From the NCBI GenBank assembly GCA_963775935.1, contig CAVZKR010000005.1, forward strand, positions 209,211-273,210: a stretch of 64,000 bases of DNA, given 5' to 3'. Numbering within the stretch: the stretch's first letter is position 1; every line of letters starts with the position of its first letter. A model generated the notes under the pieces. It had not been told where the DNA came from. It made no database searches and saw nothing but the letters and a program-made list of their open reading frames with translations. Shown here piece after piece: positions 2,393 to 50,371 of this stretch. Position numbers and translations under genes: made by a program. The stretch is from an uncultured Chloroflexia bacterium. Lineage in GTDB: Bacteria; Chloroflexota; Dehalococcoidia; GIF9; UBA5629.

Positions 2393-4054
2393 TTATTTTT
2401 TGGGGTCTTCCAGCGTCATATAGTGGGCGTCGCCCAGATCGTTAGGATTAAAGGCTTCTCTAATCTTCCGCTGGTAGCGAAGTACAAAGGCTTGTGGTGA
2501 TTGAGAAAGTATCTGCTCGCGTTTCTCTTTGAAAGTTTCCCTACCGTCCGCTCCCCTAACAATGGCATTTGCCCTCTCCATACCCTTTCCCCATTTCTTT
2601 TCCGCGGCAAATTTGTCACAATTCTCGAAAAACTCAAATGTACCATCTACGGATGCTTTATCATGTGGGTCCCAGCAGGTAAAATTCTCCCACATAACAT
2701 AGGCTCCTCCCCCATTGCCTCCCAATCCTCCCATCATACAATCCCCTCCAGCTGCCACGATGGCACCTTTCTGTTCCCATTGCCTCTTGAATGCTGTTAT
2801 CTCTTCAACATTTGATGTTCCATAATCAGGTGGGCCAAATGTTCCGAAACAACCCTCGTAGCCACCCGCAAAAACAAGGTTGAGATTTTTATGTCCCAGC
2901 CTCAGCAGGTAGACCATAGCCCAGTTTGCTATATCCGAGTCTAACATCGCCTTGACCTTCCAACCGCCAGTATCAGTGAGTATCTTGTCCAGTGCCTTCT
3001 CCTGCCATTCGATGTCTCTCGGAGTCATCCCTGCCAGTATAAACTGGAATTCACGTTTCATTTCTTCGCTTATTTTATTAATTTCAGGATCCCTGGATAG
3101 CTGCTCTAAATCGGAAAGAGTTTTGGTCGGGTCGGTCAGTATTTTAATCATGGCAAATTTAAGGTCTCTACCGAACATATTGAACTGTCGGTGAGCGAGG
3201 TATCCGATTCCAGCATTCCAGATTTTATGACAGGCATCTGCCCATGCTTGCCAGGATGGGAAGGCTAGGGTGTAGCACTTGAAATTGTCAGGCAGCGCTG
3301 CCTTATAGGCAGGTGTCGTACCTTCGATTGGTAGCTTTGTTGGTCCTGGCCATGGATAAAGCTTAAGGGCGCATTTAGTAAAGACGCCCATTGCCCCTCT
3401 CATCCCAAGCGACCCTCTGATAATGCCTCTAATACCCGGCCCAGGTCCTTCACCGCAAAACCAGCCCAGTCCCGAACCCAATGAGCCTGCTCTCATGATA
3501 TCGCCATTGGGCATAACCCATTCAAGTCCCAGCAGATTCTCACTACCGTAGCCCATAAACATGGTATCACAACCTGGTCCTGCATACGATGTGGCACTGG
3601 CAAGGGGGGAACAGCTACCGCCGGCACCGATAATATGGGTATTTAGCCCTACCTTCATGGCTTCAGCCTGCAGATTGACTCCTATTACATAAGGCTCAAC
3701 AACGGCGAACATATTCTTCTTATCAATTTCCAGGACTCGATCCATCCGTCGCATATCGATTTGGAGGACATCATCGAATGAAGGATAGCCCATAGCACCC
3801 CAAAACGTGCTGGATGCCTTGAATTTAATCTTGTATTTGTTGCAGACTTTGACGATAGACTGAACCTCTTCCACGCTGGCCGGCAATACTACGGCTCCAC
3901 CCCTCGGAGTGTTAGTCCTGTAATGAGGACCCAGGTGGATGGAAGTGACAGCAAGAGGGAATTCATAGGAAACTAACACCGCCGGGTCATTGGAGACATT
4001 CTTCGGTCCGACGATATCTTCTAATGCCTGATAAACTTCTTTCGATAATGCCAT
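2393..4054 (-). CDS. FAD-linked oxidase (FAD_binding_4 / GlcD-D-lactate dehydrogenase-like), long form
   Basis: Start moved to the internal ATG at 4054, preceded by AGGAGGAATAAGAGAC. The N-terminus MALSKEVYQALEDIVGPKNVS... is typical of GlcD-like flavoproteins. FAD-binding region (VVLPASVEEVQSIVKVCNKYKI). Confidence 0.8.
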   Translation of the reverse strand: MALSKEVYQALEDIVGPKNVSNDPAVLVSYEFPLAVTSIHLGPHYRTNTPRGGAVVLPASVEEVQSIVKVCNKYKIKFKASSTFWGAMGYPSFDDVLQIDMRRMDRVLEIDKKNMFAVVEPYVIGVNLQAEAMKVGLNTHIIGAGGSCSPLASATSYAGPGCDTMFMGYGSENLLGLEWVMPNGDIMRAGSLGSGLGWFCGEGPGPGIRGIIRGSLGMRGAMGVFTKCALKLYPWPGPTKLPIEGTTPAYKAALPDNFKCYTLAFPSWQAWADACHKIWNAGIGYLAHRQFNMFGRDLKFAMIKILTDPTKTLSDLEQLSRDPEINKISEEMKREFQFILAGMTPRDIEWQEKALDKILTDTGGWKVKAMLDSDIANWAMVYLLRLGHKNLNLVFAGGYEGCFGTFGPPDYGTSNVEEITAFKRQWEQKGAIVAAGGDCMMGGLGGNGGGAYVMWENFTCWDPHDKASVDGTFEFFENCDKFAAEKKWGKGMERANAIVRGADGRETFKEKREQILSQSPQAFVLRYQRKIREAFNPNDLGDAHYMTLEDPKK

Positions 4055-7206: not shown

Positions 7207-7279
7207 GGGCGGTTAGCTCAGCGGTTAGAGCGCTTGCTTCACACGCAAGAGGCCACTGGTTCAAATCCAGTACTGCCCA
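7207..7279 (+). tRNA. tRNA-Val (anticodon CAC)
   Basis: Hand-folded cloverleaf: acceptor GGGCGGT/ACTGCCC, anticodon loop TTCACAC, T-loop TTCAAAT. 73 nt, no encoded CCA. Confidence 0.9.
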
Positions 7280-7280
7280 C

Positions 7281-7367
7281 GCCGAAGTGGCGGAATGGCA
7301 GACGCGCTACGTTCAGGGCGTAGTATCCGTACAGGATGTGTGGGTTCAAATCCCACCTTCGGCACCA
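7281..7367 (+). tRNA. tRNA-Leu (anticodon CAG), class II with long variable arm
   Basis: Acceptor GCCGAAG/CTTCGGC, anticodon loop TTCAGGG, long variable arm, T-loop TTCAAAT, CCA encoded. Confidence 0.9.
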
Positions 7368-7369
7368 AT

Positions 7370-7446
7370 GCGCCTGTAGCTCAGTGGATTAGAGCGCGGC
7401 CCTGCGGAGGCTGAGGTCGTGGGTTCAAATCCCACCAGGCGTGCCA
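7370..7446 (+). tRNA. tRNA-Arg (anticodon read as GCG)
   Basis: Acceptor GCGCCTG/CAGGCGT, anticodon stem CGGCC/GGCTG, loop CTGCGGA, T-loop TTCAAAT, CCA encoded. The anticodon register was assigned by hand. Confidence 0.8.
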
Positions 7447-7450
7447 TGAG

Positions 7451-7523
7451 GGGCGATTAGCTCAGCGGTTAGAGCGCCTGTCTTACACACAGGAGGTCAC
7501 AGGTCCAAATCCTGTATCGCCCA
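7451..7523 (+). tRNA. tRNA-Val (anticodon TAC), integration target
   Basis: Acceptor GGGCGAT/ATCGCCC, anticodon loop CTTACAC, unusual T-loop TCCAAAT. No CCA follows (A-TTT). Its 3' 47 nt recur at 17352 and 22052. Confidence 0.85.
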
Positions 7524-42140: not shown

Positions 42141-42770
42141 TTAATATTTACCATTTGACCAATCATGCAATAACCACGACCGCACTGCTTTTCCTTGTGA
42201 TTTTTTATGGTGATATGGGCAAAGGCAAATAAGATTATTAATGTTATTGTTTGCTGGATTATTGTCTATATGATGTATTTCCAGATAACTTGTTTTATCA
42301 CAACCTTTCCATTGGCATCTACTGTTTGCCCTTGAAAAAACTTGTCTCTGTATTTCAACTGGTATAGGTGTACGGCTTTTTTTGCCATTTTTATTACTTT
42401 TCCTTAGTACCCTATTTATAATTTTCCAAGCTAAAATACTAATTGCACAAATAGCAGCAATAGTAATAATAATTGGTATCCAATTCTGTTTAATCCATGC
42501 AGGTAATAACGGAACTACATAAATCCCAAAAAGACAACCAAAGGCTATAATTATGAGAACTATATCTGCTGTTCTTCTTGATGCCGTACTTACCTTTTCC
42601 ATTACAAAACGAATACCAACAAAAGCTAAGATAATGATGGCGATTACCGTTAACAGTATTGTTAGATTATTACTTATCCAATTAGAAGCACCTGGTATAA
42701 AAAACCATGCAATAAAAGCAAGGATTGCTATCAATATGATAATGGCTAAGAGTTGATTACTTCTCCGCAT
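42141..42770 (-). CDS. Membrane-anchored HNH endonuclease domain protein
   Basis: Four predicted N-terminal TM helices, then a C-terminal HNH region: RCQWKGCDKTSYLEIHHIDNNPANNNINNLICLCPYHH. Confidence 0.75.
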   Translation of the reverse strand: MRRSNQLLAIIILIAILAFIAWFFIPGASNWISNNLTILLTVIAIIILAFVGIRFVMEKVSTASRRTADIVLIIIAFGCLFGIYVVPLLPAWIKQNWIPIIITIAAICAISILAWKIINRVLRKSNKNGKKSRTPIPVEIQRQVFSRANSRCQWKGCDKTSYLEIHHIDNNPANNNINNLICLCPYHHKKSQGKAVRSWLLHDWSNGKY

Positions 42771-42802: not shown

Positions 42803-43213
42803 CTACATAAAACCTGGAGCAATTAAATCTAAACCATCAATATGTTGGAAATGCCTTCCATTATTAGTAGCTAATGAACATTCGTGCCTTATGGCACATG
42901 CAGCAATCCAACAGTCGGCATACTCAATAGTAAAACCCATTTTGTCACATTTACATTTAATCTCTGCCCATTTCAAACAAACCAAATGGTCATAAGGTAG
43001 TACTACATAATTTTTTAAATGATTCTCTAATTTAAAAATTCTTTGATTCCCCCACATAGCTTTGTAAGCACCGTAATATAATTGTGCAACTGTCATAAAC
43101 GCCACAGCTAAACTTCTATGTGATAAACGTGGGAGGAAATAGGCAGCTTGCGTATGTCGATTAAAAATGTACGAAACTACATCAGTATCAACTACTATTC
43201 TATTGTCTGCCAA
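42803..43213 (-). CDS. PIN-domain ribonuclease (VapC-like toxin)
   Basis: N-terminal IVVDTDVVSYIF acidic motif and PIN-like length. TTG start with an AAGAGGT RBS, 14 nt after the upstream gene's stop. Confidence 0.75.
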   Translation of the reverse strand: MADNRIVVDTDVVSYIFNRHTQAAYFLPRLSHRSLAVAFMTVAQLYYGAYKAMWGNQRIFKLENHLKNYVVLPYDHLVCLKWAEIKCKCDKMGFTIEYADCWIAACAIRHECSLATNNGRHFQHIDGLDLIAPGFM

Positions 43214-43227
43214 AGTGAATTTACCTC

Positions 43228-44178
43228 TTAATTACGTGAACTTCTTACTGCTTCAAAAAATGTGTCGAAGTCAGTGTCTTCAGGCCAATCGGATGCCATC
43301 TCGTGCAAATCACCTACAGGATAAACAGATTGTTCCCTAGCTAATTCCTCAAATGTTTTCTCTCTCCAAAATGATGACAATGGAACTTGTGGAATATCAG
43401 TAAGCGAAAGTTGTGCAATCGGCTCTACATCCTTAACATGTAATAATGCCATTTTACCAGTATCAAAATCATACTTGGCATCGCCTTTAGCCCTTATAAA
43501 TTGTCTCGGATATCGCATTATTTGTTCTGCTATATCTTCATCAAATGTGCAACCGATAGGCTCTCCCGTTGAAGGTTGTAAGCGGCATCTTAATTTGTCT
43601 TCCTCTACATCTAACATCAATAATCTACCTTCAACTGTAGTATAAGAAAATTGATATCTATTAATTCTATTTATTATCTTTTCTCTTACAGATGACTCAT
43701 ATTTCAATTTTCGGTGTCCAAAGCTGCTATTTGAATTAATGTAGATATTATCTACTCCTCTATCAATAATTTTACCTGCATCTCGTAATGGTATTAATAT
43801 ACTTTGGTCAACTTCATCTGGTACTTGTTTGTCTTTAGCGATTGCGTTTATAGATACAATTAACTTGTCTGTAGCCTCTTCACCAATATCCCATTGTGGA
43901 AATTGTTGCCCATTTCTACGAAGGTCTAACCCTATACGGAAACATCCACGCCTGACTGAAACAATTTCCAATGCAGACAATATTTGCATTGCCTTGGTTG
44001 GTCTTCCCCTTTTTGTTGCAGTATCTTTTTGCAACGACTTGTGAATTAAGCGGTCAATAGCAATACTTATATTGGATATAAAAGTCGATAGGTCGTCAAA
44101 TAGAATTGTATTGTTCCGAATAGCTGAACCCTCAAATTTAAAGCGTAGAAGCGGTTTTTTGTTGAAAGACTTGTTCAT
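43228..44178 (-). CDS. Hypothetical 316-aa protein with antitoxin-like C-terminal tail
   Basis: AGGAGGG RBS. The C-terminal ...FWREKTFEELAREQSVYPVGDLHEMASDWPEDTDFDTFFEAVRSSR resembles the toxin-binding tails of PIN-associated antitoxins. The N-terminal ~260 aa are unrecognised. Confidence 0.6.
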   Translation of the reverse strand: MNKSFNKKPLLRFKFEGSAIRNNTILFDDLSTFISNISIAIDRLIHKSLQKDTATKRGRPTKAMQILSALEIVSVRRGCFRIGLDLRRNGQQFPQWDIGEEATDKLIVSINAIAKDKQVPDEVDQSILIPLRDAGKIIDRGVDNIYINSNSSFGHRKLKYESSVREKIINRINRYQFSYTTVEGRLLMLDVEEDKLRCRLQPSTGEPIGCTFDEDIAEQIMRYPRQFIRAKGDAKYDFDTGKMALLHVKDVEPIAQLSLTDIPQVPLSSFWREKTFEELAREQSVYPVGDLHEMASDWPEDTDFDTFFEAVRSSRN

Positions 44179-44720: not shown

Positions 44721-45956
44721 ATGGATATATGGCAGGAAAGAGGAATAGCAATAGCTGAATCGAATCAAGTAGAGAAAAATAAATTAGGTTGGAAAGTGTC
44801 TTCACAATCTGGCAACGGAACGTATATTGTTAATATTGATAATGAACCATTCTGTACCTGCCAGCACTTTGAAGAGACTCATGAAAAATGCCAGCATATT
44901 TACGCTATCGAATTTATAGAGCAACAGGAAACAAGAGAGGATGGTACTACTACATGCACTAAATCAATGAGAATAACTTATAGCCAAGTATGGCCAGTAT
45001 ACAATATGGCTCAACGTAACGAGAAGAAAGAGTTTATGAGACTTCTATACGATTTATGCCAGACCATACCACAGCCAGAATATATTTTTGGCAGACCACG
45101 ATTACCTTTATCCGATATGGTATTTTGTGCAGCTTTGAAAGTATATTCAACGGTATCTGGCAGACGTTTTATGACAGACTTGGAAACTGCTTTTGAAAAA
45201 GGTTATATCTGCCAGTTACCACATTACAACTCAGTATTCAACTATCTTGAAGATGAAAGCTTAACTCCACTATTAAAGAGACTGATTGAATCAACGAGTA
45301 ATCCACTAAAGCATATTGAGACATCTTTTGCTGTAGATTCAACAGGGTTTTCCACTTGCAAATTTGACCGCTGGTATGATACGAAATATGGAAAAGAACG
45401 AAGCCAGAAGAAATGGCTCAAGGCTCACATAATGTGCGGTACTACCACTAATACAGTGGTTAGCATTGAAATCACGCCAAGTAATGTAAATGATTCTGTA
45501 ATGCTTAAGCCGCTAGTAGATAATACAGTAAAGCGATTTAATTTAGCTGAGATAAGTGCCGATAAAGCCTATGCCAGCGATAATAACCTTAATATCATCA
45601 ATGATGCAGGTTCTGTACCATACATACCTTTTAAAATGGGGGGTTCTACTGGTCGTGGTGTTAGAAAGTCTGGCTCTGCAATCTGGACGAAGATGTATCA
45701 CATGTTCATGTTTCATCAACAGGAATTCATGCAACATTATCACAAGCGTTCCAATGTGGAATCAACATTTGCCATGATTAAAATGAAGTTCGGTGATGCC
45801 ATAAGAAGCAGAGGACATGTCTCGCAAGTAAACGAATTGCTATTAAAGGTACTTTGCCACAATATCTGCGTATTGATACAGTCAATTTACGAATTGGGGA
45901 TTAGTGATACTTTTTGGGCAGAAAATGCGGTTGCACAAAAAGCAAGTCAGAATTGA
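44721..45956 (+). CDS. DDE transposase (IS4/IS5-like) with N-terminal SWIM zinc finger
   Basis: SWIM-type motif CTCQHFEETHEKCQHIYA. Candidate DDE residues in AVDSTGF, ISADKAY and SNVESTFAMIKMKFG. Confidence 0.75.
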   Translation: MDIWQERGIAIAESNQVEKNKLGWKVSSQSGNGTYIVNIDNEPFCTCQHFEETHEKCQHIYAIEFIEQQETREDGTTTCTKSMRITYSQVWPVYNMAQRNEKKEFMRLLYDLCQTIPQPEYIFGRPRLPLSDMVFCAALKVYSTVSGRRFMTDLETAFEKGYICQLPHYNSVFNYLEDESLTPLLKRLIESTSNPLKHIETSFAVDSTGFSTCKFDRWYDTKYGKERSQKKWLKAHIMCGTTTNTVVSIEITPSNVNDSVMLKPLVDNTVKRFNLAEISADKAYASDNNLNIINDAGSVPYIPFKMGGSTGRGVRKSGSAIWTKMYHMFMFHQQEFMQHYHKRSNVESTFAMIKMKFGDAIRSRGHVSQVNELLLKVLCHNICVLIQSIYELGISDTFWAENAVAQKASQN

Positions 45957-46659: not shown

Positions 46660-46903
46660 AGCCTATGTATACAGGGATACCATCTTCGCAGTTGTTACCC
46701 CATGAGGCCAAACCTATAGGCCCCTGGGTCGGGGGTCAGCCTTGGAGAGCCGTGGGAGACCTAGGATAAGCCGTATCGATAATAAGCTAAATTTCTTATA
46801 CTAAAGCATGTAATGAGGTTTTATGTATCGGATGCAATGGATGTACGAAGTAACAACAAATTGATATCATAACTATAGAGGCTATTGGAGGGAGGTGCCG
46901 ATA

Positions 46904-48307
46904 ATGAGTAATCAACCCTCGGTATTCATTTCATCGAATGTCAAGGAATTTCGTGACTTACGTTCAGCAATAGCTTTTACTTTGCGTGAACAAGGATTTA
47001 CTGTGTATCAATCCGAAGCATCTGATTTTGATGTAAAAGGTGATCGTTCTGCAATCGAAGAATGTTTTACTAACATTAACAATAGTGATTTCTACATACT
47101 AATTGTGGGCAATAAAAAGGGTAATCTATTTGAAGATGGAATTTCTATAACGCGCCAAGAATATAGGATTGCGAGAAGTACTTTTATGTCACTTAAGCGA
47201 CCACGATTGTTCTTTTATTTACGCCGTGAAACTGAAATGGCGCTACAAAGTAATCAACATGATCTATCAACAACAGATATTGATGATTCAGACCATCTAA
47301 AATCATTTATTAATGAAATTCAAAATCCGAACATTGCTGGTGCCCCTAATTTTCTAACTCGTTTTTATGATTTCAATGACCTAATGCAATCTTTAGTTGT
47401 AAAGATGAACTTAGGCAGAAACCTTTCCGAAAAGCTAATTCGGTATTCTTTGTTATCAGAATTGCTATCAAATCTTGCACATATTTCAAATCGTAGTGGT
47501 ACTAGCATATGGCTGCCTCATCATTTTATAAGCAAAGTAAGAGAACGAGTGAAGATATCAATAGCTGATATTGATAAATACGTTAATGTCAAGAGTGATT
47601 TGGCTTTATCATTGGGTATGGCACTTGTTACAAGGACAAGGGGAAATGATTTAAGTACAAAAATTATCAAAACGGCTCTAGACGAAGGGTTATTTTTAAT
47701 TTTCGATCATACGACTGGTAGTCTAAAAGAATCTGAGTTGCATTCTGCTATCAGACAAATTATTGAAGATATCGAGTCATTCCGTACTCTCGATTATTCT
47801 GGATCGGGAAAAGATTGGAGTGCGGATATTGCTGTGGCTGTATCAGCAAAAAGGAAGGGAGATGCACTAGTAATTCCTTGCATGGACTTATCTTTGGCTT
47901 TTGCTTATTATGATCGATTGGAAAATATATTTAACGGACACTTGGCATTTTGTCGTGTATTACTTGGTTTGGATGAGCAAATAAAGCCGTATAAACGACA
48001 ACCACTTACAGTTTGGGGAGATACTGAAGACCACCAGATGAGGAAAGAGAAGGTCTCGGAGGCGGAAATATCACATCTTATTCAAAACAACATATGGCCA
48101 CTGGGAACAAAAGTCCCCAGAGACGTTTACGGAGCTAGCAGAGAAGAACAAATAAAGACTGTTAAAGATAAGATGCTATCGATTCTAGGGGAAGCCGGTA
48201 TTGATAGTATTCAATTCAAGGAAACAATGGAAAAAGCTGCCATAAATTATTTGGATAAAAATGCGGTCGCTCCAGAGGAAGGTATTCAGAATTTAGATAA
48301 TATCTGA
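46904..48307 (+). CDS. DUF4062-domain protein with uncharacterised ~350-aa C-terminal region
   Basis: N-terminus SVFISSNVKEFRDLRSAIAFTLREQG...SDFYILIVGNKKG...ISITRQEYRIA fits the DUF4062 pattern. GGAGGGAGG RBS 8 nt upstream of the ATG at 46904. Confidence 0.65.
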   Translation: MSNQPSVFISSNVKEFRDLRSAIAFTLREQGFTVYQSEASDFDVKGDRSAIEECFTNINNSDFYILIVGNKKGNLFEDGISITRQEYRIARSTFMSLKRPRLFFYLRRETEMALQSNQHDLSTTDIDDSDHLKSFINEIQNPNIAGAPNFLTRFYDFNDLMQSLVVKMNLGRNLSEKLIRYSLLSELLSNLAHISNRSGTSIWLPHHFISKVRERVKISIADIDKYVNVKSDLALSLGMALVTRTRGNDLSTKIIKTALDEGLFLIFDHTTGSLKESELHSAIRQIIEDIESFRTLDYSGSGKDWSADIAVAVSAKRKGDALVIPCMDLSLAFAYYDRLENIFNGHLAFCRVLLGLDEQIKPYKRQPLTVWGDTEDHQMRKEKVSEAEISHLIQNNIWPLGTKVPRDVYGASREEQIKTVKDKMLSILGEAGIDSIQFKETMEKAAINYLDKNAVAPEEGIQNLDNI

Positions 48308-49378: not shown

Positions 49379-49412
49379 AGATTTGGTAGCGGGGGCTGGA
49401 TTTGAACCAGCG
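49379..49412 (-). repeat. 34-nt direct repeat copy A: 3' end of an initiator-like tRNA-Met (T-arm + acceptor + CCA)
   Basis: Identical to 50037-50070. Confidence 0.85.
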
Positions 49413-50032: not shown

Positions 50033-50041
50033 ATTGAGATT

Positions 50042-50091
50042 TGGTAGCGGGGGCTGGATTTGAACCAGCGACCTTCGGGTTATGAGCTCGA
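50042..50091 (-). repeat. Initiator-like tRNA-Met (CAU) 3' half, copy B (anticodon arm to CCA), 5' half not recognisable
   Basis: Reverse complement: TCGAGCTCATAACCCGAAGGTCGCTGGTTCAAATCCAGCCCCCGCTACCA. This is close to the recalled E. coli tRNA-fMet 3' half. No complementary 5' acceptor or D-arm lies upstream. Confidence 0.65.
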
Positions 50092-50371
50092 TTGGATCAG
50101 GCGCTACCATCCTCTACTCAGCATCACATGTTCTCCACTGCTCGCCGCAGAGCGAGCAAATTGCTATGTGGCACACCGGATAAGGTCATGGAAATAGCAG
50201 TGGTGGCAGCGCTCCCTGATTAACTGATGCCTATGCTAAACGAGCAATACTAATCCAACCGCCCTGACAGCGTGAAGCATGGCATGGTCAGCCTGGATGT
50301 TGATCATTTGCAACGATTTCTGTGATGTTGTAACGTTAAGATTATCCACACTATACGGATAGTAAGCTTGC

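Follow-up and report, generated by a model that had tools for sequence, protein, structure and literature searches.

The DUF4062 gene and its N-terminal domain

The analysed window was a 64,000-nucleotide (nt) stretch of contig CAVZKR010000005.1 (assembly GCA_963775935.1) from an uncultured Chloroflexia bacterium, and the subject of this study is one gene within it, at 46904–48307, whose product carries an N-terminal DUF4062 domain and a large C-terminal region. The open reading frame (ORF) lies on the + strand, starts with the ATG at 46904, ends with its stop codon at 48307 and codes for 467 amino acids (aa). A ribosome-binding site (RBS), GGAGGGAGG, ends 9 nt ahead of the ATG. A stand-alone gene with an RBS had been proposed in the preliminary description of this DNA, and its coordinates proved exact. 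A GTG at 46895, three codons upstream, is a possible alternative start; the ATG was favoured because the nearest homologues likewise begin with MSNQPS. The parts of the gene and of the sequence ahead of it were as follows, where GC denotes guanine-cytosine content and AF2 denotes AlphaFold2.

46904..48307, + strand: complete gene, predicted DUF4062/NIR TIR-like effector with C-terminal sensor-like module, 467 aa (ORF, start, homologues, AF2 model)
46919..47236, + strand: TIR-like core of DUF4062, residues ~6–111, or ~1–111 by the three-architecture alignment (Pfam, conservation, KpSwz profile match, Foldseek)
47159–47161, + strand: codon of E86, from the catalytic-glutamate (Glu) motif
47237..47434, + strand: DUF4062 extension or putative 'stalk', residues ~112–177 (conserved H131, F135, E138, P148 and F154)
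47435..48304, + strand: C-terminal module, proposed sensor/regulatory domain, residues ~178–467 (profile, fold and architecture comparisons)
46795..46903, + strand: upstream stretch of ~110 nt including the RBS, alignable with the nearest homologues (loci L017, L018 and L016)
46700..46770, no strand: GC-rich patch, GC 0.62, outside the alignable upstream stretch

The DUF4062 domain that had been suspected in the first ~110 residues could be confirmed with Pfam (PF13271, residues 7–90, E = 7.9e-16, 58.5 bits against a gathering cutoff of 24.7), and the motifs VFISS, FYILIVG and SITRQEYRIA were found in the 467-aa protein. Fifty-five full-length homologues were collected with 25–69% identity, and all 50 of the long ones also carried a precomputed PF13271 assignment. 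When the window protein and 37 homologues were aligned (38 sequences, 25–69% identity), S81, T83, R84 and E86 proved invariant in 38 of 38 sequences, within the block S81-I-T83-R84-Q-E86-Y87, while F8 and E53 were nearly invariant. The S-x-T-x-x-E-Y motif of the window protein is the family consensus.

A PDB sequence search with the window protein returned the entries "KpSwz TIR/DUF4062" (10wc, 11cq, 11cv). The family profile matched the KpSwz chain with an E-value of 8.9e-8, at positions 7–97 only, and E86 was aligned with the Ala of S-F-T-E-K-A-F in the deposited chain, which is an E97A mutant. In the register read from this mutant chain, E86 is the probable catalytic Glu. The AF2 model of the full protein, built from the alignment, reached a predicted local distance difference test (pLDDT) score of 85.2 and a predicted TM-score (pTM) of 0.74, with a beta-alpha-beta-alpha arrangement at the N-terminus. 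Foldseek against the PDB revealed as its sole neighbours TIR domains (TIR-STING, SPARTA TIR-APAZ and RPS4) and DNPH1, with probabilities of 0.96–1.0. Taken by its sequence, motif and fold features, the 467-aa protein belongs to the DUF4062/NIR domain family.

The extension at residues ~112–177 was conserved even in the remotest DUF4062 relatives and absent from homologues in which a two-transmembrane (2TM) segment takes the place of DUF4062; by likeness to the KpSwz stalk (residues 15–205), it may be a stalk. As had been stated earlier, the ~350 aa behind the domain carry no Walker motifs or other signature: a pattern search of the 467-aa protein detected no Walker A, Walker B or P-loop, and Pfam, NCBIfam, PADLOC-DB 2.0.0 and PDB-sequence searches gave no match for the remaining ~350 aa. 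Two PHROGs families of no assigned function matched the N-terminal domain only, and no phage-encoded homologue was found in the phage collection searched.

The kind of system concerned is already known as of 2026. Osinski et al. described DUF4062 as a TIR-like NADase, which turns nicotinamide adenine dinucleotide (NAD+) into ADP-ribose plus nicotinamide, in the single-gene system Swarozyc; its representative KpSwz is activated by the phage portal via an auxiliary domain and needs E97 (bioRxiv 10.64898/2026.05.01.722283). Evangelion was described by Ibarra-Chavez et al. as a single-gene "DUF4062 core + diversified auxiliary region" (AUX), of which the member Eva01 needs F11, E87, W162 and its AUX and lowers NAD+ on infection, with wider changes in adenine metabolites seen by metabolomics; Enterococcus makes up 35.6% of Eva01-positive plasmids (bioRxiv 10.64898/2026.06.25.731849). 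Le Mouellic et al. renamed the domain NIR and presented it as the effector in an Avs2 protein, in Vulcan (NIR with HEAT repeats) and in Vesta (a small NIR protein with an alkaline phosphatase, vstB), with NIR genes adjoining defence genes in 20.0% of cases versus 3.9% expected (bioRxiv 10.64898/2026.09.04.749371); the Swarozyc preprint also puts ~20% of DUF4062 genes in or near defence islands (bioRxiv 10.64898/2026.05.01.722283). The presence of the domain on Avs2 bears out the earlier remark that DUF4062 occurs on STAND-type proteins. According to the three 2026 preprints, a glutamate is needed for defence throughout (KpSwz E97, Eva01 E87, Vulcan E98, VstA E103 and PsAvs2 E108), and in the characterised systems NAD+ falls on infection and cultures collapse at high multiplicity of infection. 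The auxiliary region is needed in both KpSwz and Eva01 (bioRxiv 10.64898/2026.05.01.722283; 10.64898/2026.06.25.731849). All DUF4062 domains assayed (KpSwz, PsAvs2, Vulcan, Vesta and human TEP1) deplete or hydrolyse NAD+ (2026 preprints), and the eukaryotic domain resides in the human TEP1/vault particle (bioRxiv 10.64898/2026.05.01.722283). Gao et al. had first labelled the Avs2 DUF4062 domain a CMP hydrolase (as told in bioRxiv 10.64898/2026.09.04.749371).

The C-terminal module and its partners

The C-terminal region was conserved over its full length within the family (38-sequence alignment), and the module could be divided into a core (~178–396 aa) and a helical tail bearing an EEGI motif (~397–467 aa). 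Comparison of a profile of residues 112–467 with PDB chains, KpSwz included, gave no match; the best was PPK2, with an E-value of 0.67 over 36 residues. A dedicated model of the C-terminal region (pLDDT 78.3) had a mixed alpha/beta structure with several long helices, and eight short beta-strands are predicted in the region. The Foldseek comparison of this region, which had been proposed with the preliminary description, returned no match in either database searched, with noise only against the PDB (best E 0.7, probability 0.15) and against BFVD (best E 0.47, probability 0.08). A HEAT solenoid could be ruled out for the region, as there was no HEAT/ARM Pfam match, the model was mixed alpha/beta and Foldseek returned no solenoid.

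A search of 1.84 billion representative proteins with the C-terminal profile yielded 455 proteins at E ≤ 1e-3 and 253 at E ≤ 1e-10. Among the 95 long matches, 75 also carried DUF4062, one carried a Schlafen AlbA_2 domain and one a weak TIR_2 match. Most of the apparent exceptions to the DUF4062 fusion were 5'-truncated ORFs starting inside the T-R-Q-E-Y motif. The protein had been called an orphan and its C-terminal region novel; this region is undescribed, as far as the comparisons with existing sequences and models go, but it is widespread and thus no orphan, defining a family of at least 455 proteins. The family has its centre in Chloroflexota and other uncultured bacteria from sediment; distant relatives occur on plasmids of Agrobacterium and Rhizobium. 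Comparison with one of these, the 419-aa DUF4062 protein of the Agrobacterium plasmid pAtAF1_95, using hhalign revealed clear distant homology (probability 87.5%, E 3.6e-6, 257 columns).

In eight of these 95 proteins, 345–387 aa in length (P0080, P0082, P0084, P0087, P0089, P0091, P0094 and P0103), DUF4062 was replaced by a short hydrophobic N-terminus that appears to be two-TM, with two clear 19-residue hydrophobic segments in six of them and one in P0087 and P0091. Homology of these 2TM-fused proteins to the window protein begins at about residue 176–178. The one Schlafen-fused protein, P0160, carried a 178-residue Schlafen AlbA_2 region ahead of the module (E 2.3e-14). The alignment of the three architectures extends to the C-terminal EEGI tail, and E186, N190, H206, R213, G262, D337 and E388 were conserved in the DUF4062, 2TM and Schlafen architectures alike. 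This alignment delimits the TIR-like core (~1–111), the stalk (~112–177) and the module (~178–467).

Immune sensor-effectors are usually built in this way, with different N-terminal output domains swapped onto one shared C-terminal module, and by this analogy the module at residues ~178–467 could be the sensing or regulatory part of the protein. What is new here is an auxiliary module, without a detectable fold relative, that recurs behind a two-TM hairpin and behind Schlafen AlbA_2.

Genomic context of the gene and its homologues

Ten loci were compared, namely the window, seven family loci from metagenomes and metagenome-assembled genomes (MAGs), and two plasmid loci of distant relatives, and no flanking gene was common to all ten. 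The neighbours consisted of BrnT/BrnA-like genes and two integrases in L001; a Gabija/Lamassu/mad3-type ATPase and a 303-aa protein in L004, a Dehalococcoidia MAG; a 346-aa homologue of that 303-aa protein and a NucC-like PD-(D/E)xK nuclease in L019; an AbiJ-like PDC-S32 protein in L017; LAGLIDADG and helix-turn-helix (HTH) genes in L016; and nothing but housekeeping genes in L006 and L007. Among the distant relatives, the Agrobacterium pAt locus contained a PIN protein, a nuclease with an ATPase, AbiH and CBASS, and the Rhizobium plasmid locus a rep region and an integrase. The DUF4062-fused homologues thus had a different context in each genome, mostly of toxin–antitoxin (TA), mobile or defence genes, and the neighbourhood check that had been proposed for the family revealed no concentration in conserved housekeeping contexts across the ten loci. 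One full-length family match, in a Dehalococcoidia MAG, was found in ~185,000 species-representative genomes.

The window copy lies in a low-GC island of ~8 kb (42.1–50.1 kb; GC 0.375 vs 0.472 on each flank), and the GC content at third codon positions (GC3) of the DUF4062 gene was 0.28 vs 0.54–0.56 in the neighbouring housekeeping genes. An accessory island, with the gene placed between a DUF2178/XRE pair and a convergent four-TM protein, had been described before, and each part of this could be confirmed: upstream lie a DUF2178 membrane protein (E 2.8e-9) and an XRE/HTH_3 regulator (E 2.7e-14), and the convergent downstream gene codes for four hydrophobic segments. DUF2178 and XRE were probably acquired separately from the DUF4062 gene, because their GC3 differs (0.50/0.49 vs 0.28). 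The XRE/DUF2178 pair and the four-TM gene could be ruled out as partners, since tblastn detected them in none of the homologue loci and the GC3 differs.

The other features of the island and its tRNA border were as follows.

42141–42770, − strand: membrane-anchored nuclease candidate, 209 aa, four TM segments near the N-terminus, HNH-like motif at the C-terminus (HNH_3 E 3.9e-5; PADLOC ZorE-like HNH E 2.9e-5)
42803–43213, − strand: PIN-domain (VapC-like) toxin gene, on the same strand as the 316-aa gene
43228–44178, − strand: 316-aa protein, candidate defence gene (PADLOC PDC-M32A E 1.3e-8, residues 8–259; no Pfam match)
44721–45956, + strand: insertion sequence (IS) transposase inside the island, N-terminal SWIM zinc finger and DDE_Tnp_1
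50045–50118, − strand: tRNA with CAU anticodon (loop CUCAUAA; Rfam 33.8 bits, E 4.5e-4; missed by ARAGORN)

The 209-aa HNH protein at the island edge had a GC3 of 0.23. The 316-aa PDC-M32A-like gene is situated directly upstream of the PIN gene on the same strand, and together they could make up a two-gene module. Around the transposase at 44721–45956, a look for terminal inverted repeats gave no clear ones. The island further holds small HTH proteins and HicA/HicB in addition to the DUF2178/XRE pair, and no phosphatase; the neighbours of the DUF4062 gene are XRE/DUF2178 and the four-TM protein.

The island abuts the tRNA at 50045–50118, which has one mismatched acceptor-stem pair. Its 3' 34 nt were perfectly repeated, at 49379–49412 and 50037–50070, 658 bp apart, and the copies bracket a 624-bp insert bearing only hicA/hicB. 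These are att-like direct repeats of a mini-island that has no integrase; at the distal edge of the low-GC island, a third copy was not found at ≥ 22/34 identity. The gene sits in a horizontally acquired island beside a tRNA. Elsewhere in the window, a tight cluster of four tRNAs (Val-CAC, Leu-CAG, Arg-GCG and Val-TAC) was observed at 7207–7523 on the + strand.

The intergenic gap upstream of the DUF4062 gene was 244 nt, with a GC of 0.62 at 46700–46770 vs 0.35 elsewhere in the gap. The leader of about 240 nt and its GC-rich patch, as previously reported, are therefore present, but the patch is neither conserved nor structured: it was unique within the window and could not be aligned with the upstream regions of homologues, an Rfam scan of 46660–46903 gave no match at E ≤ 1, and the predicted folding of this leader was no better than that of shuffled sequences (minimum free energy z = +1.23). 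On these grounds a structured leader or riboswitch at 46660–46903 could be ruled out. The GC patch is better read as a mosaic junction, where the DUF2178/XRE module of higher GC meets the low-GC DUF4062 cassette, and is no part of the system. The gene moves as a single-gene cassette that includes ~110 nt of upstream sequence of its own. Within this stretch, a near-palindrome, TGTATCgGATGCA, is present at 46824–46836, ~70–80 nt upstream of the ATG; its aligned counterparts are TGTATTgAATACA in L017 and TATATTgAATACA in L016, in which the symmetry is kept despite substitutions. L017 and L016 also have a promoter-like element, TTGACA-17-TAGGCT, just upstream of it, and the near-palindrome could be the operator of the cassette.

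Relation to named systems and proposed function

Among the named systems, the closest in layout is Evangelion taken in its broad sense, since the window gene is likewise a single gene with an N-terminal DUF4062, a non-annotated AUX and no conserved partner, and falls within that definition. An aromatic F (F8 here, F11 in Eva01) and an E-Y pair (E86-Y87 here, E87-Y88 in Eva01) are common to both, and both are carried on mobile or accessory DNA. The AUX of Eva01 is, however, short (truncation L177*, key residue F212; well under 150 aa) compared to ~290–350 aa here, Evangelion comes from Bacillota resistance plasmids whereas uncultured sediment bacteria are the source of the window family (Dehalococcoidia being the closest named), and the Q/W/E motif reads IEE in the window protein. 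A DUF4062 protein from an Enterococcus plasmid, whose Evangelion status was assumed from the genus, shared residues 1–91 only, with an AUX hhalign probability of 0.05%. The AUX length and this comparison would argue against membership in the Eva01 lineage.

Swarozyc has a homologous TIR-like DUF4062 core with the catalytic Glu in the same register (E86 here, E97 in KpSwz), and KpSwz is also a single gene with a C-terminal sensing domain that is needed for activity. The KpSwz AUX, in contrast, forms a compact HTH/winged-helix domain to which the phage portal binds, the homology ends at about residue 97, and the module of the window protein is more than twice as long, mixed alpha/beta and without a sequence match to it. 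Membership in Swarozyc could be ruled out, as the AUX is not homologous to the portal-binding domain of KpSwz. A DUF4062 protein of a Salmonella P2 prophage, which matched KpSwz over residues 3–209 (E 2.4e-45), had no similarity to the window protein beyond the core (module comparison probability 0.1%). This 447-aa protein is encoded at 2480–3823 of locus L021 (Salmonella enterica NZ_CP051374.1), in a P2-like hotspot between virion-morphogenesis and baseplate-V genes; beyond residues 3–209 it gave no KpSwz match, and it appears to combine a Swarozyc-type core with a different auxiliary domain.

Vulcan, too, has NIR fused directly to a C-terminal sensor in a single protein and shares the conserved Glu, but the window protein has no HEAT-repeat solenoid, which rules out membership. 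The NIR/DUF4062 effector with its conserved Glu is likewise common to Vesta, which was ruled out by the lack of an alkaline phosphatase partner. Avs2 and other NLR-like STAND proteins share both their N-terminal effector domain and their sensor-effector logic with the window protein; membership was ruled out, as the latter has no Walker A/B, no NTPase Pfam match and no repeat sensor, and is only 467 aa long. Thoeris was ruled out as well, with no ThsA-like effector in the window or at any homologue locus.

It is possible, if on balance doubtful, that the module is a new self-contained class of sensor or switch, with a fold absent from the PDB and BFVD, linked to three or more unrelated outputs (a DUF4062 NADase, a two-TM membrane hairpin and a Schlafen AlbA_2 domain) and responding to a cue that is new to DUF4062 systems. 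If that were true, the family would be a separate type of defence system and not a further Evangelion or Swarozyc lineage.

The gene probably encodes a single-protein immune sensor-effector of the abortive-infection type. This reading builds on what was observed: the domain could be identified, its catalytic motif is intact, its predicted fold is TIR-like, the C-terminal region is modular, no partner is conserved, the gene moves singly, the contexts vary and are often rich in defence or mobile genes, and the island stands out in composition. The chemistry, the need for the Glu and the AUX, and the abortive-infection outcome are taken from the literature, and from these we infer the activity, defence role and trigger of the window protein. 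The possible single-gene defence factor of the preliminary description gains support from the significant DUF4062 match, the lack of a conserved housekeeping context for the DUF4062-fused family and the 2026 preprints. In the proposed mechanism, the module (~178–467 aa) would most likely hold the TIR-like domains in an inactive assembly until it is bound by an infection-associated cue, perhaps a protein of the phage, perhaps a nucleic-acid intermediate or small molecule. Detection would rearrange or oligomerise the TIR-like domains and thereby switch on the NADase, and E86-dependent hydrolysis would then deplete NAD+ and stop the growth of the infected cell before the phage cycle could be completed.

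Several observations weigh against this proposal. The Q/W/E motif is kept only in part, reading IEE, with E53 conserved. The Foldseek E-values for the TIR matches were weak (1e-3 to 1e-1), because the query was the whole two-domain model. No PADLOC model (PADLOC-DB 2.0.0, 2023) matches the protein, so that the check proposed earlier yielded no automated defence call. A search of sequencing runs returned DNA metagenomes only (freshwater sediment and peat), with ≤ 10% of words matched and no RNA. The term 'single gene' may also fail across the family, since two close relatives have a conserved gene upstream: the gene for the 303- or 346-aa protein (L004 9046–9957, L019 1823–2863) runs on the same strand as the DUF4062 gene and ends 33–43 nt upstream of it. 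The 303- and 346-aa proteins share 72% identity and match nothing in Pfam or PADLOC; the DUF4062 proteins of L004 and L019 are 62–63% identical to the window protein, and their other flanks differ. This arrangement may represent a two-gene form of the system. The 303/346-aa gene was ruled out as a universal partner, being absent from the window and from the other compared loci.

The 2TM-fused homologues limit the certainty of the defence reading. Three of them were examined for context, all returned by a word-indexed search and all in Chloroflexi MAGs (L022 8001–9116, L023 1735–2856 and L024 8001–9038). P0080 and P0196, which are 65% identical, are both situated between ffh and gap, and P0091 has a radical-SAM gene on one side and an alcohol dehydrogenase on the other. 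These genes look vertically or stably inherited and not like island cargo, and the form in the ffh-gap context might be domesticated or ancestral. Because of this housekeeping context, what the module senses may be a state of the cell and not a phage component, and the defence reading goes no further than probable.

An unlikely alternative is that the protein has no anti-phage role and is a regulator or growth-arrest factor that consumes NAD+ in response to stress or a metabolite, and whose module senses a cellular cue for dormancy or physiology. Apart from the ffh-gap context in two Chloroflexi MAGs and the metabolic neighbours in the third, it can draw on the DUF4062-fused singletons of L006 and L007, which have housekeeping genes only and no defence neighbour, and on TEP1, where DUF4062 works in a non-defence particle. 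The placement of the DUF4062-fused genes, different per genome and mostly near TA, integrase, IS or defence genes, speaks against it, as do the low-GC acquired island of the window copy and the patchy distribution with a single full-length match among the species-representative genomes. It is quite unlikely that the protein is a defence effector with a different chemistry, cutting another N-glycosidic bond in a nucleotide or nucleoside, as DNPH1 and CMP hydrolases do, and depleting nucleotides instead of NAD+. The DNPH1 matches did give the best target-normalised TM-scores in Foldseek (0.58–0.64), and both the original CMP hydrolase label of Gao et al. for Avs2 and the broader adenine-metabolite changes of Eva01 would suit such a chemistry; every assayed DUF4062 (KpSwz, PsAvs2, Vulcan, Vesta and TEP1), however, acts on NAD+, and the S-x-T-x-x-E-Y motif here does not depart from the family consensus.

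The abundance of TA genes in the island (PIN toxin, HicA/HicB and HTH genes), together with the upstream XRE gene and a near-palindrome that could be an operator, would fit an addiction toxin, that is, a NADase restrained by a neighbour (XRE or four-TM) that kills cells losing the island. Such a role is very unlikely, given that XRE/DUF2178 and the four-TM gene accompany no homologue, that GC3 values of 0.50 vs 0.28 suggest separate acquisition, and that a simple toxin leaves the large conserved C-terminal module unexplained. Some bacterial TIR domains make signals for a separate effector, as in Thoeris, and TIR domains are among the fold matches here. The window protein might by the same token produce a cyclic-ADPR-type second messenger, like ThsB of Thoeris; this appears highly improbable, as no ThsA-like (SIR2, SLOG or Macro) or other effector gene is adjacent here or in the homologue loci and the characterised DUF4062 proteins are terminal NADases.

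The DUF4062/NIR domain has been newly recognised as an NAD+-depleting immune effector common to bacteria and the human TEP1/vault particle. Should the window protein prove to be just one more lineage within a known system, the finding would be of practical use for annotation only; PADLOC-DB 2.0.0 (2023) misses the class of DUF4062 with this module. The locus adds a large conserved AUX to systems in which what each AUX senses is the central question, and this module comes from poorly sampled lineages, the Chloroflexota-type sediment bacteria. The natural swapping of its N-terminal partner lets the module be delimited cleanly, which gives a defined set of constructs for finding the trigger, and the module offers a route to asking how one and the same sensor can act on an enzyme, on a hairpin in the membrane or on a Schlafen domain.

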